Of a DNA stretch of 64,000 bases, positions 33,001 to 39,000 are shown in pieces. How positions within the stretch are numbered: the stretch's first letter is position 1; every line of letters begins with the position of its first letter. Made by a program: the position numbers. The DNA comes from Angustibacter luteus (lineage in GTDB: Bacteria; Actinomycetota; Actinomycetes; Actinomycetales; Angustibacteraceae), in contig NZ_BAABFP010000005.1 of assembly GCF_039541115.1 (NCBI RefSeq), positions 310,001-374,000 of the forward strand, given 5' to 3'.

Positions 33001-36000
33001 GGGCTCGCCGCTGGTCAGCCGGTTGAACAGCGACGCGCTGCCGAAGACACCGAGCGCCAGGCCGAAGGCGACGACCACGGCCGCCAGCCAGCCCAGCGCC
33101 ACCAGCCTCGCGTGACGGGCCTCGAAGCGGCCGAGTCGTTCGAGGAAGGTCACGCGGCCCAGGATCCCAGGCCATCCGCGGCGTCCCGACGTCAGGTCTG
33201 GTCGGCCTGCAGAACGTCCGTCAGGGTGGGCTCGACGAGCGGCAGCCGGACCTCGAACCGGGTGTCGCCCGGCTTCGAGACGACCTGGATGTCGCCGCCG
33301 TGCTTGCCGGTGACGACCCGGTAGGAGATGTCCAGGCCGAGGCCCGTGCCGGCGCCGACCGGCTTGGTGGTGAAGAACGGCTCGAAGATGCGGCTGCGCA
33401 GCTCCGGCGGCACCCCCGGACCGTCGTCCCCGACGCTCACCAGCACGTGGTCGTCCTGGACCTCGGTGTGCAGCCGGATCGTGCCGCCCGGCCCGGTGGC
33501 CTGGGCTGCGTTGTCGATGAGGTTGGTCCAGACCTGGTTGAGCTCGGCTGGGTATCCCGGCACCAGCGGCAGGTCGTCGCAGTAGTCCTTCACCACGGTG
33601 ACCCCCTTCAGCTTGGCGCTCAGCATCACCAGGGTCGAGTCCAGCCCCTCGTGCAGGTCGGTCTGCTGGAACGGCGCCCGGTCGAGCTGGGAGTAGTTCT
33701 TGGCCGCCCCGACGAGCTGGCTGATCCGGTTCACCGAGTCGGTGATCTCGCGCATCAGGGAGTCGGTCTCCAGCGAGTAGGCCACCCACGCGAAGCCCGT
33801 CTGCCGGTCGTCCGCGTGCAACGTCCGGTAGACCTTCTCGGCCCAGGACACGTCGAGCCCGGCCGTGACGTAGATCCCGGCCAGGTCGAAGCCTCGCTGG
33901 ATCTCGTGCTCCTCGAGCCAGTCGCCCAGCTCGTCCTCGGCGTCGCTGCGCTCCATGGCACTGCGCCGGGGTGCCGTCTCGGACAGGGCCAGCGCCTCGT
34001 TCTGCAGGTTCACCAGCTCGTGCAGGACGTCGGCCGGGATGTGCCCGTCGGCCAGGTAGTCCAGCTTGCTGCGCATGTGCTCGACTCGCGTGCGGAGCTG
34101 GTCGACCGCGCGCTCGGCCGCGGACGCCGGGTTGTTCAGCTCGTGGGTCAGGCCGGCCGACAGCGCACCGAGCGCCTGCAGCCGCTGCTGGTCGCCGACC
34201 CGCTCCTGGGTGCGGCGCATGCCGGCCGCGATGCCGTCCAGCAGGTGCACGGCGATCGGGAAGTGCTCGTGCATGAACGCGGCGAACTCCTCGGCCGGCA
34301 CCGCCAGGAACGTGGCGTCGGTGCCGGCGCGCACGCTGGCGACGTACGTCGAGGGCCGGTCGGCCTGCTTGATCCACGAGGCGGTCGCACCGCCGTAGGC
34401 GCCGCGGAAGTCGGTGCGGGTGACCTCGACCTCGACCGCGCCGACCTGCCGGGTCATCACCATCGTGCCGGTCAACAGCTGGTAGAAGCACTCGGCCGGC
34501 TCACCTTCGTGGGTCAGGTACTCGCCGGCCCGGATGCTGGTGCGCCGTCCGTTCTCCACGAACCACGCGAGCTGCTCGTCCGTCAGGCTCTCCAGCAGGA
34601 AGAGCGTGCGCAGCTCCTCGGCGGAGACCCGGTCGTCGGGGGTGGTGGCGCTGGTGGCGTCGGTGGTGGTCATCTCACAACCTCTCCAGGTACTGGTGCA
34701 CGAGCGTCACGGCGAGTGCACCCTCGCCCACGGCCGAGGCGACCCGCTTGACCGAGGTCGAGCGGACGTCGCCGGCCGCGAAGATCCCCGGGACCGACGT
34801 CTCCAGCGGCCAGGGGTCGCGCTTGGGCTCCCAGCCGTCCGGCCGTCGGCCCTCGTGCATCAGGTCGGCACCGGCCAGCACGAAGCCGCGCTCGTCCCGG
34901 CTCAGCACGCCGTCCATCCACTCGGTCAGCGGCTGCGCTCCGATGAACACGAACAGGTGCGAGGCCGGGGACTCGGTCAGCTCGCCCGAGTCCAGGTTGC
35001 GCAAGGTCACCCGCTCCAGGTGGCCGTCGCCGCCCGCGCCGCTGACCGCCGTCCGGGTGCGCACCTCGATGGTGTCGATCCCGGCGATCTGCTCGATCAG
35101 GTAGTGCGACATCGACGAGACCAGGGACTCGGCGCGCACGACCAGCACGACGCGGGCCGCGAAGCGCGAAAGGTAGACGGCGGCCTGGCCGGCGGAGTTG
35201 GCGCCGCCGACGACGTAGACGACCTCGCCGCTGCAGTCCGCGGCCTCGGTGAGCGCCGCGCCGTAGTACACGCCGTTGCCGACGAACTGCTCGACGCCGT
35301 CCGCGCCCAGCAGCCGGTACTGCACGCCGGTGGCCAGCACCAGGCAGTGCGCCTGCAGGCACGACCCGTCGGCGAACCGCACGCCGCGCCGGGCGCCCAC
35401 CACCTCGAGGCCGACGACCTCGCGGGTCGTCACGATTTCGGCGCCGAACCGCACGGCCTGACGTCGGGCCCGGTCGGTGAGCGCGGCCCCGGACACGCCG
35501 TCCGGGAAGCCCAGGTAGTTCTCGATCCGCGAGCTCTGGCCGGCCTGACCGCCGGTGGCCTGCCGCTCGACGATGACCGTGCGCAGCCCCTCGGAGGCGG
35601 CGTAGACCGCCGCGCCCAGACCGGCGGGCCCACCGCCGACGATGACCACGTCGTAGAAGTCGGTCGCCGGGTTCGTCGGCAGGCCGACCCGGTCGGCCAG
35701 CTCGGTGACGGACGGCGAGACCATCGGCTCCCCACCCGGCGTCAGGACCACCGGGACGTCGGTCGCCGCCGCGCCGCAGGCCTCGAGCAGCCGCGCACCA
35801 TCCGGGTCGTCCGCGCCGATCCACTGGTACGGCACGCCGTTGCGGGCCAGGAACTCGCGCACCTCGTGCGAGCGGGCGGACCACCGGTGCCCGATGACCC
35901 GGATGATGTCCACCGGTGCGTCACCGGAGGCGCGCCAGGTGGCGAGCAGCTCCTCCACCACCGGGTAGAGCAGCTCCTCGGGCGGGCTCCACGGCTTGAG

Positions 36001-39000
36001 CAGGTAGTGGTCGAGATCGACCGTGTTGATCGCGGTGATGGCGGCGTCGGTGTCCGCGTACGCGGTGAGCAGGACGCGGCGGGCGCGCGGGAACAGGTCC
36101 ATGGCCTGCTCGAGGAACTCCACGCCGCTCATCCCCGGCATCCGCTGGTCCGCGAGCAGGACGGCCACGCTCTCGCCGCGGGAGGCCAGCTCCCGCAACG
36201 CCTCCAGCGCCTCCGACCCGGACTCGGCGCGCACCACCCGGTAGTCCTCGCCGTACTGCCGGCGCAGGTCGCGGGCGATCGCCCGGGAGACCCCGGGGTC
36301 GTCGTCCACGGTGAGGAGGACGGGTCGGCGGGGTGCGTCGGACGGCGCGCTCGTCATGTGCGTACTCAACCACCCGGGACCGTCGATCCATACCCCGTTC
36401 CCCCGCGCACCCCCGCCCGACCCCGCGGTGATCATGCACGTTCACCCCGGCGTCCCGAGGGTGAACGTGCATGATCACCGCGGGGTGGGGGGAGTGGGCG
36501 GGAGTCGAGGTCGGCGCTCGCGGGTAGGTTCGGCGGCGTGGACGACCTGTTCAGCGTGGACGACGCTCCCGACCGCCCGTCGGCTCCGCTGGCGGTGCGG
36601 ATGCGGCCACGCACCCTGGACGACGTCGTCGGGCAGGGGCACCTGCTCGAGCCGGGCTCCCCGCTGCGCCGGCTGGTGGACCCGACGGCGGGGCCGGCGG
36701 GTCCGGCGTCCGTGGTTCTGTGGGGTCCACCGGGCACCGGCAAGACGACGCTGGCGCACGTGGTCGCGGGTGGCACGGGCGGGGCGTTCGTCGAGCTCTC
36801 GGCCATCACCGCCGGGGTCAAGGACGTGCGGGCGGTGATGGACCGGGCCCGTGACGAGCTCGCGCTGCACCGGCGCGGCACGGTCCTGTTCCTGGACGAG
36901 ATCCACCGCTTCACGAAGGCCCAGCAGGACGCCCTGCTGCCCGGTGTCGAGAACCGCTGGGTGGTGCTGGTCGCGGCGACCACCGAGAACCCGTCCTTCT
37001 CGGTGGTCGCGCCGCTGCTGTCCCGATCGCTGGTGCTGACGCTGCGGCCGCTGGACGACGAGGCGGTGCGGGTGCTCATCGAGCGGGCCGTGCTGGAGCC
37101 CCGCGGCCTGGCCGGGCAGGTCGAGCTGCAGCCGGACGCCCTGGAGCACCTGGTGCGGCTCGCCTCCGGCGACGCCCGCCGGGCGCTCACCGCACTGGAG
37201 GCGGCGGCCGGCGCCACGCTGTCCGCGGGGGAGCGCGAGGTCACCACCGAGCACGCCGAGCGCGCCATCGACGCGGCCGTGCTGCGCTACGACCGCGAGG
37301 GCGACCAGCACTACGACGTGGCCAGCGCCTTCATCAAGTCGATGCGCGGCTCGGACGTCGACGCGTCGCTGCACTACCTGGCCAGGATGCTGGAGGCGGG
37401 GGAGGACGCCCGGTTCATCGCCCGGCGGATCGTCATCGCGGCGTCCGAGGACGTCGGGATGGCCGATCCCACGGCGCTGCAGACCGCGGTCGCCGCAGCC
37501 CAGGCCGTCCAGCTGATCGGCATGCCCGAGGCGCGGATCGTGCTGGCCCAGGCGGTCGTGCACCTGGCGACGGCACCCAAGTCCAACGCGTCCTACCTCG
37601 GCATCGACGCCGCGATCGCCGACGTCCGGGCGGGCCGGGCCGGCACCGTGCCGGCGCACCTGCGCGACGCGCACTACCCCGGCGCCGCCAAGCTGGGCCA
37701 CGGCCAGGGGTACCGGTACGCGCACGACGAGCCGCACGGGGTGGCCGAGCAGCAGTACCTGCCGGACTCGCTGGTCGGCCGGGAGTACTACACCCCGACC
37801 GACCGCGGGGCCGAGCGCGAGATCACCTCACGGCTCAATCGGCTGCGGCGCATCCTGCGCGGTCGCTGAGCCACGGCACGACGTGCGGCAGCCGGCCTGC
37901 GAGACGATCTCGGTGCTGATGGCCGCCCAGGCGTCCTCGTCGGCGTCGATCGGCCGGCCGAACGGCAGCCGCAGCAGGTGCCGGCGCTCCTGGTTGTCCC
38001 GGCACTGCACGGTGAGGCCGTACCGGTCGACGCCGACCGGCCGAGCCTCCACGGTCCGCTCGAGCGGCACCCCGCGGCCGTCCGGCAGCGGCAGCCGACC
38101 CAGCCCGTGCACCAGCTCGAGCAGCCGGGGCGAGAGCAGCGCACGGACCCGGTCGAGCAGATCGGCCTCGTCCAGCCAGAGCGGGTCGGGCTCCGCCGCC
38201 CGGACGTCGTCGCCTTCGATCGTCACGCACCCACCGACCCAGTGCAGCTCGCCCTCGGCGACCTCGACCAGCAGCAGGTCGTAACCGTCCACCCCGTCCA
38301 ACGGCCAGGCCCGGCGCAGCGCCTCGAGCGCCCCGGCCCCGTCCGCGGGACCCGCCAGCCGGGCCCAGCCGAGCAGCTCGAGGTGGGCGCGCGGGACCGT
38401 CAGGTCAGCCAGCGCGGCCTCGGCCCGGATGCACACCGAGATCGCCCAGTCGTCGCCGGCGGACGGCGCGCCGGGCACGGGGGTGGACAGAGCCGACCGC
38501 GAGCGCGGGTCGTGCGGCACGGCCAGTACCAGCTCGCCGCCGGGAAGCGCGGCGTGCAGCGCGGGCACGGCGTTGGCGTCGCCGAGCGGACCCGACACGG
38601 TCGCCGCGCCGATGCCCTCCAGCAGGGTGCGGGCGACCTCGGCGGAGGAGGGGAGCTGTCGCGGGTGGACCATCGTCACGGGTTCCTCCGGGGGGCGGCT
38701 GGGTGCTGCGGCGTGGTGCCGCGGGGGTGTTCGGTGAGATAAGGTTAGCCTTACCTTACATCGATCACCACCGAAGGAGCACGATGGTTGCCCACGCCTC
38801 GCGACGCGTCGTCCGGCGCTCGCGCGCCCTCGGCCTCGCGCTGACCCCGAAGGCCGTGAAGTACTTCGAGAAGCGGCCGTACCCGCCGGGCGAGCACGGG
38901 CGGGCCCGCCGTCCCAACAAGAGCGACTACTCGTCCCAGCTGCTCGAGAAGCAGCGGCTGCGGGCGCAGTACGGGATCCGTGAGGCGCAGCTGCGTCGGG

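Follow-up and report, generated by a model that had tools for sequence, protein, structure and literature searches.

The gene pair analysed here, from a 64,000-nucleotide window of the Angustibacter luteus genome, encodes a response regulator with a flavoprotein output and a soluble histidine kinase, and is best read as an NAD(P)H flavin reductase, gated by phosphorylation, that would pass electrons to an external acceptor with no cysteine relay. Our whole reading, a self-contained cytoplasmic two-component switch on a Cys-less disulfide- or persulfide-reducing flavoenzyme, is tentative, and its parts differ in strength: anatomy, residue states, gene pairing, the pattern of co-loss and family structure are observed here, and activity, ligand and binding are predicted. 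A signal would enter via a repurposed cNMP-fold pocket of the kinase, the phosphate would pass from kinase to receiver, and receiver phosphorylation would alter the activity of the fused glutaredoxin-TrxR module; in this way the pair might control thiol or sulfur-stress repair post-translationally.

33192..34673, minus strand: soluble histidine kinase gene, 493 aa; structure model with pLDDT 88.5
34675..36357, minus strand: receiver-flavoprotein (response regulator) gene, 560 aa; receiver, Cys-less mycoredoxin-like domain and CxxC-less TrxR-fold domain; AlphaFold2 pLDDT 94, three domains

The first-pass annotation had the outline of the pair right: coordinates, lengths, common strand and 1-nt spacing are all confirmed, as are the Pfam spans for the regulator (Response_reg 15-126, Pyr_redox_2 235-546) and the kinase (cNMP_binding 46-137, HATPase_c 375-479). 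GC3 of the two ORFs is 0.96 and 0.97. The conserved adjacency it reported also holds, with the kinase directly downstream in 78 of 80 GTDB loci and the other 2 stopping at a contig edge.

Probable phosphotransfer within the pair

35980..36315, minus strand: receiver domain, residues 15-126 (Pfam PF00072, E 2.2e-14); D18-D20, D70, T98 and K121 intact
36148-36150, minus strand: phosphoacceptor D70 of the receiver, intact
34143..34145, minus strand: His177 in the H-box THELNNP, autophosphorylation site, in 75 of 75 close kinases
33237..33551, minus strand: HATPase_c catalytic domain, kinase residues 375-479 (PF02518, E 1.5e-26); N, G1, F and G2 boxes intact

A residue check finds the complete phosphorylatable set in the receiver (acid pocket, Asp, Thr/Ser and Lys), and D70, T98 and K121 are each present in 79 of 80 close relatives, the remaining one being truncated. 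The kinase has the boxes of a class I histidine kinase, N384, N388, D416, G418, G444 and G446 each being found, like H177, in all 75 close kinases. In a second gene set, each of the 23 full-length genes paired with a kinase has an intact D19, D70, T98 and K121; in the kinase-less genes T98 is gone in 23 of 23 and D70 is retained in 7 of 23, a co-loss that does not amount to 23 independent events, because the kinase-less genes are mostly one clade. Together, the kinase pairing and this pattern of co-loss support phosphotransfer well, if indirectly, and it is highly probable that the kinase autophosphorylates His177 and hands the phosphate to receiver Asp70. The pair had been proposed to work with no transcription step on a cAMP signal; the cognate pairing, the flavoprotein output and the lack of a DNA-binding domain stand, and the cAMP signal is not supported.

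A redox module without redox cysteines

34678..35661, minus strand: low-Mr TrxR-fold FAD/NAD(P)H domain, residues 233-560; GGGPAG (FAD), GGANSA (NAD(P)H) and terminal GD motif intact
35248..35262, minus strand: TrxR CxxC position, G366-A-A-L-T370; no cysteine, E371 next
35233-35235, minus strand: C375 (in AADCSG), outside the CxxC motif, 5-6 residues downstream
35668..35910, minus strand: mycoredoxin-1-like (glutaredoxin-fold) domain, residues 150-230; 2LQO match

The C-terminal domain shares its fold, length and FAD and NAD(P)H motifs with low-Mr TrxB (TIGR01292; 3CTY, 5MH4, 4ZN0), with 3CTY as a fold match (Z 37.3, rmsd 1.5, 303 residues aligned). Unlike TrxB, it lacks the redox-active CxxC and scores 209.8 bits against the TIGR01292 cut-off of 343.45; a separate canonical TrxB is encoded in the same genome. 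The earlier view was that the first Cys of the CxxC had been lost, leaving AADCSG, but that register came from a pairwise BLAST alignment requiring one 6-residue and one 5-residue gap. Aligned by HMMER to three TrxRs of solved structure, and in a multiple alignment alongside relatives that keep the CxxC, the protein has G366-T370 at the CxxC position, where both cysteines are absent. C375 is retained in only 58 of 150 family representatives, and residues 360-380 are without any Cys in 89 of 150. E371, present in 130 of 149, matches the Asp after the TrxR CxxC in the HMMER register, a match that varies with the register, since MAFFT places it on the following Gly.

Region 127-233, previously left unassigned, contains at residues 150-230 a Cys-less mycoredoxin-1-like domain. 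The best PDB match of its profile is mycoredoxin-1 (2LQO, E 2.7e-8; next match 1.2e-3), and the only other match in its own genome is canonical Mrx1. The strand-helix order of the model fits a glutaredoxin fold, and the cis-Pro-type P202 is retained, as in 134 of 140 representatives. The WCGYC of mycoredoxin has become W159-S-A-R-S163, neither CxxC nor a monothiol CxxS; among 137 representatives covering the domain, CxxC occurs in none and a Cys at position 160 in 9. The lost Grx cysteines remove the obvious reason for a thiol-handling domain, and the domain may thus be a mere adapter.

The cofactor sites, together with residues characteristic of this family (Y365, N387, Q391, R408, M416-S417-x-Y419-L420, R532 and R538), are kept in 145-149 of 147-150 representatives. 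To judge from these positions, the fused module, with all four redox cysteines lost and its FAD and NAD(P)H sites kept, is probably an active enzyme. One feature counts against our preferred explanation: HRRxxxR, the NADPH 2'-phosphate motif (PMC8564101), is reduced to V407-R408-A409, with R408 its only remaining Arg (145 of 150 representatives), so the cofactor may be NADH or NADPH. The flavoprotein could instead be a catalytically dead scaffold that acts by protein binding, an idea in keeping with the loss of every redox cysteine, with pull-downs that linked a probable orthologue to a phage protein and to ClpC1 (PMC7474061, PMC10433963), and with the reported ability of thioredoxin surfaces to dock receivers (PMC9584953). 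We think this very unlikely, since a pure scaffold would not need the FAD/NAD(P)H glycine motifs, D530 or R408, yet these hardly vary among proteins whose overall identity is 40-55%.

Spread and forms of the family

Of 151 genomes sampled from the phylum Actinomycetota, 46 carry a family member, and the family reaches at least 3 other phyla, with members in actinomycetes, cyanobacteria, Burkholderiaceae and Deinococcus; it is thus not confined to Actinomycetes. Of 150 representatives, 70 have a receiver in front of the module, at least 40 have a cNMP-like domain, and the others have neither; in Cupriavidus, a 423-aa head-less form closes an ABC-transporter operon. That the module occurs with a receiver, with a cNMP-like head or alone backs the view of the enzyme as the output. 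In a tree, all Cys-less forms group together (SH-aLRT 100), to the exclusion of TrxB and of a Cys-intact Grx-TrxR fusion, and receiver and cNMP heads have been swapped at least 2 times.

The Cys-intact fusion, found in six genomes of the phylum (WCPDC-Grx plus a TrxR with CATC in five and CATR in one), aligns over the whole module. It has no regulatory head, and where the Cys-less family has Arg408 it has an acidic residue, of the NADH type by comparison with AhpF. The Angustibacter protein has lost all four cysteines. The cNMP-headed form, named by NCBI 'cyclic nucleotide-binding domain-containing thioredoxin-disulfide reductase', shares the Cys-less module (45-50% identical, same tree branch); it differs in having a cNMP-fold domain in place of the receiver, whose pocket retains Glu/Asp but not Arg, and in needing no kinase. 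It comes after dnaK-grpE-dnaJ-cbpM-clpB-trxA-zfUBP in Streptomyces and Rhodococcus plasmids, and the identical order from dnaJ on is seen in another cNMP-form locus. A zf-UBP gene lies next to the module gene in 20 of 80 receiver loci and in 24 of 80 cNMP-form loci, and is absent beside the pair in the Angustibacter luteus window.

The kinase: input and direction of signalling

34224..34631, minus strand: cNMP-binding-fold sensor domain, kinase residues 15-150 (PF00027, E 3.6e-9); non-canonical pocket
33816..34049, minus strand: helical insert between the two DHp helices, ~80 residues, 209-286; model helices 214-284

The first-pass annotation pictured a cAMP-reading kinase switching a ferredoxin-reductase-like enzyme. 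The sensor does have the CNB fold (PF00027 above the Pfam cut-off, PDB profile matches), the same genome encodes a class III cyclase and a CRP-like protein with both cassette Glu and Arg, and both residues occur in 5 of 24 more distant family kinases. Cyclic-nucleotide binding is mediated by that Glu and Arg (PMC12422582), and in the Angustibacter phosphate-binding cassette they are replaced by Ala96 and Tyr110; none of 76 close kinases and none of 118 one-component forms has both, and the 5 intact domains cluster with CRP-like domains, apart from the Angustibacter domain (quick tree, support 82). Without the Glu and Arg that bind cAMP, the domain is unlikely to take cAMP as its input, and with FNR hallmarks also absent from the enzyme, the model as a whole is highly improbable. 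Judging by these substitutions, the input quite likely binds a repurposed cNMP-fold pocket and is probably neither cAMP nor cGMP.

No Pfam family matched the DHp insert, in which E246 is found in 75 of 75 close kinases and G272 in 74 of 75, as is W296 beyond it. The insert is retained across phyla, in kinases of Deinococcus, Caballeronia, Nostoc and Gloeothece, and the sensor at the N-terminus is variable, one Nostoc kinase having a receiver-like domain in that place. This could point to a reversed or looped flow, in which the flavoprotein would be an NAD(P)H/flavin redox sensor docking on the kinase via the insert and tuning its activity toward other receivers. Some loci have two kinases of this family, and no downstream target gene conserved across the family loci was found, both of which fit. 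We nevertheless hold it unlikely: no second receiver recurs in the loci, and cNMP-headed and head-less forms occur without such a kinase nearby (the 80 cNMP-form loci, many of them short, gave no family kinase with an E-value below 2e-21), so the module works without one.

What the flavin might reduce

Lacking an internal dithiol, the module would have to pass electrons from its reduced flavin straight to an external acceptor. By analogy with Bdr, a CxxC-less TrxR-fold bacillithiol disulfide reductase (PMC8564101), the likeliest acceptor would be a disulfide or persulfide presented by the Cys-less mycoredoxin domain, which we regard as plausible without being able to favor it outright. Candidates are a low-molecular-weight thiol disulfide, a thiolated protein and the UBP-type zinc-finger protein that is often encoded nearby, through its cysteines. 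It is doubtful that one thiol is the substrate throughout, because the family's hosts, from actinomycetes and cyanobacteria to Burkholderiaceae and Deinococcus, differ in their low-molecular-weight thiols. Counting against the analogy, Bdr is not close to the Angustibacter flavoprotein (Z 25.7, 20% identity), which scores 56.5 bits against the 339.9 cut-off of TIGR04018 (Bdr/YpdA).

Under the same phosphorylation switch, the acceptor of the flavin electrons might instead be something other than a thiol (O2, quinone, metal, heme or Fe-S protein), which is how TrxR-like FNRs and IruO work, the mycoredoxin-like domain being only a docking element or linker. Bdr/YpdA, FNR (YumC) and IruO share the TrxR fold without CxxC, use direct flavin chemistry and between them serve diverse substrates (PMC8564101, PMC10294844); the fold matches IruO (Z 26.9) and YumC (Z 26.8), and the lack of CxxC, like the loss of all four cysteines, is in line with that type. 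These enzymes are more distant, however (Z 25-27, 20-23% identity), and have no Grx or signalling domain. The FNR feature of a C-terminal extension with a FAD-stacking residue (PMC10294844) is missing: the chain stops at the terminal helix, its residue 560 matching the final residue of TrxR 4ZN0. The domain is also nearer to TrxR than to FNR (E 2e-45 vs 2e-16, Z 37.3 vs 26.8), which does not support the earlier 'ferredoxin-reductase-like' as a family label, and the recurring neighbours are trxA, chaperones and zf-UBP, with no ferredoxin among the annotated neighbours of 12 plasmid loci. A non-thiol acceptor is accordingly possible but not what we expect.

A broader generalization of the disulfide/persulfide reading is speculative and rather doubtful: a widespread and so far unrecognised class of cysteine-free reductases derived from a glutaredoxin-TrxR fusion, gated by a small-molecule signal through a repurposed cNMP-fold domain (one-component) or a kinase bearing such a domain (two-component), in which the bacterial UBP-type zinc finger would carry cysteines in trans or be the substrate itself.

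Relation to catalogued systems

The architecture had been thought new, but the receiver-TrxR pair is widespread and already catalogued. Its gene order (regulator, then kinase) and its receiver with Pyr_redox output, seen in the loci and Pfam matches, are those of the P2CS/P2RP 'TrxB' response-regulator class, described in the available census text as receiver plus pyridine nucleotide-disulphide oxidoreductase (PMC9739842, PMC9953108); the Angustibacter pair is a member with no evident difference. The same architecture, as far as the accessible text describes it, is that of S. coelicolor SCO7298 (RR)/SCO7297 (HK), in the same order, and of a 'Mycobacterium-like' REC-thioredoxin reductase fusion (PMC5847659). 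The available portions of these three papers make no mention of missing cysteines, a mycoredoxin-like domain, an altered cNMP pocket or a function, and the literature searched yielded no functional study or biochemical data on the class. If the enzyme is active, a response regulator would itself gate the flow of electrons, a kind of output that the censuses list and for which we found no study in that literature, and the kinase sensor would establish a ligand new to the cNMP fold.

SCO7298 (trxB3) and MSMEG_1516 are probable orthologues by architecture, size and gene order, not by sequence. Papers treat them as ordinary thioredoxin reductases, a mechanism that the missing cysteines rule out in its canonical form for these probable orthologues. 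Expression of sco7298 is induced by sulfane sulfur (PMC9952706) and by acid shock (PMC2631018).

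The gene pair and its wiring

The pair is a real, conserved two-component system with a flavoprotein output, catalogued but unstudied. As the first-pass annotation had it, both reading frames and their Pfam domains are present on the minus strand, one base apart:

34675-36357 (-), P0001, 560-aa response regulator (Response_reg 15-126, Pyr_redox_2 235-546; GC3 0.96)
33192-34673 (-), P0002, 493-aa soluble histidine kinase (cNMP_binding 46-137, HATPase_c 375-479; GC3 0.97)

The wiring proposed there, from kinase to receiver to flavoprotein, is borne out by these domains, by gene order and by co-loss. 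Among the 80 best of 495 confirmed matches in GTDB, the kinase gene follows the regulator gene in 78 loci, and the other two loci end at a contig edge. Co-loss was scored in 47 phylum loci, namely 27 of 29, two unpublished ones being omitted, plus 20 weaker matches of our own choosing. D19, D70, T98 and K121 are kept in 23/23 full-length kinase-paired receivers (one further receiver is truncated), whereas T98 is lost in 23/23 kinase-less receivers and D70 is kept in 7/23, three of these loci having under 1 kb downstream, in a count that is inflated by kinship of the loci. This is the pattern that a cognate phosphotransfer pair would predict. In a large group of family members (L249-L268, L125, L126 and L128) the receivers are degenerate pseudo-receivers and no kinase gene is adjacent; a single genome can carry as many as eight family copies.

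The closest named relatives of the pair come from Angustibacter, and among the best 25 NCBIfam models listed for each protein none reached its cut-off. A divergent MgsA/RarA gene lies on one flank. On the other, 38 nt downstream of P0002 and on the same strand, an MMPL-family transporter gene (window 30943-33153, minus strand) is possibly co-transcribed with the pair; it is absent from the recurring neighbours of family loci in the general neighbour count, no search aimed at it having been made. No sigma-70 promoter match was found at the locus, and its one terminator-like match is at chance level. A PilZ-domain protein gene (window 27419-28114, minus strand) adjoins aspS, an unusual context.

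No functional study of the family was found in the searched literature, which leaves out most subscription papers. The loci sco7298, MSMEG_1516 and MSMEG_1515 probably belong to the family, the first two as orthologues of P0001. SCO7297/SCO7298 are catalogued as a classic kinase and a "TrxB" enzymatic-output regulator (PMC9739842), a cyanobacterial census includes a TrxB regulator (PMC9953108), and a "Mycobacterium-like" REC-thioredoxin reductase fusion is on record (PMC5847659). As for expression and binding, sco7298 rises with sulfane sulfur (PMC9952706) and acid shock (PMC2631018); MSMEG_1516 was pulled down with phage Wildcat gp145 and with ClpC1 (PMC7474061, PMC10433963) and falls on VapC overexpression; and MSMEG_1515 has an N-terminal Cys that is oxidised under hypochlorite. 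A keyword search of the main text of a review on Deinococcus thiol reductases did not find the family.

A thioredoxin reductase fold without its cysteines

The first-pass annotation read the motif AADCSG as the CxxC of thioredoxin reductase (TrxR) with one cysteine left. That register arises in pairwise BLAST against the TrxB of the same genome, and only when the motif is flanked by two gaps, one of six residues and one of five. In HMMER alignments to three solved TrxRs the first cysteine falls at G366 or A367, the second at T370 and the following Asp at E371, while a multiple alignment with CxxC-intact relatives sets the motif, free of gaps, on G366-L369; in either register both cysteines are absent from P0001. 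A different residue, C375, is invariant in 80/80 close relatives but present in only 58 of 150 family representatives (50% clustering), with mostly Leu, Met, Val or Phe elsewhere, and was rejected as a surviving catalytic cysteine of the family. Selenocysteine was likewise rejected: the flagged TGA in L123 is the terminal stop, the G102 frame is open across the whole match, and the G092 copy is split between two frames.

P0001 has intact FAD and NAD(P)H motifs, and each of the residues Y365, N387, Q391, R408, M416, S417, Y419, L420, D530, R532 and R538 is conserved in 145-149 of 147-150 rows. Of the TrxR NADPH motif HRRxxxR (PMC8564101), V-R-A remains. The AlphaFold2 model (pLDDT 94) best matches TrxR in the flavin-reducing arrangement, with TM 0.94 over the target for 5MH4 and, for 3CTY, Z 37.3 and rmsd 1.5 over 303 aligned residues; IruO, YumC and Bdr score lower (Z 26.9, 26.8 and 25.7). 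TrxR-like FNRs are described as having an FAD-stacking C-terminal tail (PMC10294844), whereas P0001 lacks this tail and stops at the TrxR terminal helix. The ferredoxin-reductase-like label is thus unsupported, and so is the surviving cysteine. The likeliest reading, still tentative, is that P0001 would be an NAD(P)H flavin reductase that is gated by phosphorylation and needs no cysteine relay; a disulfide-type acceptor leads among the candidate substrates.

The region before the flavoprotein is a second redox fold, mycoredoxin-like and without the CxxC. A profile of 45 sequences covering residues 149-230 (A3) matches mycoredoxin-1 in the PDB (2LQO, E 2.7e-8; next a glutaredoxin, 1.2e-3), and for 16/45 of its members Pfam Glutaredoxin is a match with E no higher than 0.1; its sole further match in the A. 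luteus genome is a canonical WCGYC mycoredoxin, where P0001 reads WSARS. A PDB search with the single sequence of residues 148-230 gave no match under E 0.3, and the ESM Atlas gave two leads under 0.9 for the same residues. CxxC at this active site occurs in 0 of the 137 representatives that cover it.

Cysteine-intact counterparts exist. Six of ten fetched stretches (L211-L216) encode glutaredoxin-TrxR fusions of ~400 aa with WCPDC and an acidic, NADH-type nucleotide site, which align across the entire module; five also carry CATC. The L211 fusion reads CATR, the second TrxR cysteine being lost. In a quick tree built from 71 TrxR domains, a branch with a support of 100 separates all 47 Cys-less rows from 18 TrxB and the six fusions; the tree is midpoint-rooted, and the order of change, cysteine loss or gain, does not follow from it. 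The simplest reading of these sequences is that the Cys-less module would be a glutaredoxin-TrxR fusion after loss of all four redox cysteines.

The kinase and its sensor

P0002 belongs to kinases that keep the H, N, G1 and G2 residues (75/75 close kinases). Its model (pLDDT 88.5, pTM 0.58) has no membrane segment and carries, between the two DHp helices, a helical insert of ~80 residues that kinases from Deinococcus, Caballeronia, Nostoc and Gloeothece also keep, although their sensor domains differ widely; the Foldseek matches listed for this model are only kinase cores, which do not cover the insert. The Nostoc family kinase (L094 9858-11249) has a receiver-like domain instead of the cNMP fold.

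The first-pass annotation took cAMP to be the input. Cyclic-nucleotide binding requires the Glu and Arg of the phosphate-binding cassette (PMC12422582). P0002 aligns Ala96 and Tyr110 with these residues of the CRP-like protein of its own genome, and close kinases have Ala in 72/76, Tyr in 74/76 and both canonical residues in 0/76. The genome encodes a class III cyclase, so cAMP is available in A. luteus; it is disfavoured as the signal because of the altered pocket, not because it is missing, and its role as input is unsupported. The conserved Ala/Tyr pocket suggests a ligand other than cAMP. Both canonical residues are kept in 5 of 24 family kinases sampled across the phylum (one row from the unpublished genome G120), and a quick tree of poor resolution groups these five domains with CRP-like ones. 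Family kinases with a canonical Glu/Arg cassette (L120-L124) could be true cyclic-nucleotide-gated versions.

Family spread and neighbours

Family matches at E 1e-60 or better occur in 46 of 151 phylum genomes, including four unpublished and six with the Cys-intact fusion. Among the 150 representatives, 70 have a receiver head and 40 (narrower profile) or 45 (broader) a cNMP-like head, the rest being partial or head-less. The TrxR-domain tree requires at least two changes for each head. The cNMP-headed, one-component form is already named by NCBI; its cNMP domains have Glu and Arg together in 0/118, and the quick tree with the CRP-like domains does not resolve a single origin for them and those of the kinases. 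The head-less form is the last gene of an ABC-transporter operon in Cupriavidus. Since the module works without a kinase in these two forms, the enzyme itself is favoured as the output. Cyanobacterial family loci come after glgX and an AGE-family epimerase gene, and loci of Nostoc and Deinococcus share a gene for low temperature requirement protein A.

A small gene for a UBP-type zinc finger (zf-UBP) adjoins 20/80 receiver loci, 24/80 cNMP-form loci and 4/29 short phylum loci; beyond genus-level synteny, the neighbour count revealed no other recurring neighbour. The stand-alone zf-UBP gene of A. luteus lies away from the pair (L087 1411-1740, minus strand, contig C8) and is of the long subtype, with 65-74% identity to the copies located after the kinase gene elsewhere, and its product may be a third component in trans. 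Complex prediction with residues 148-560, FAD and Zn scored 0.00 twice, in runs without folded controls, and gives no evidence for or against an interaction. Pyr_redox occurs in 0 of 117 longer zf-UBP matches, and HATPase_c in 9/117, each of these a cluster of one member and perhaps a read-through artefact. On contig C2, zf-UBP is fused C-terminally to a Na+/H+ antiporter-like membrane protein (L088 1489-3183, minus strand), a fusion also named among the longer matches.

In plasmids of Streptomyces and Rhodococcus, the cNMP form is the last gene of a chaperone-trxA-zfUBP operon, a mobile protein-quality-control cassette with the order dnaK-grpE-dnaJ-cbpM-clpB-trxA-zfUBP-cNMP/TrxR-like (L098, L099, L247). 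Within one 17-kb stretch of another genome (L220, G041), the one-component and receiver forms occur together with a zf-UBP gene and two family kinases in tandem.
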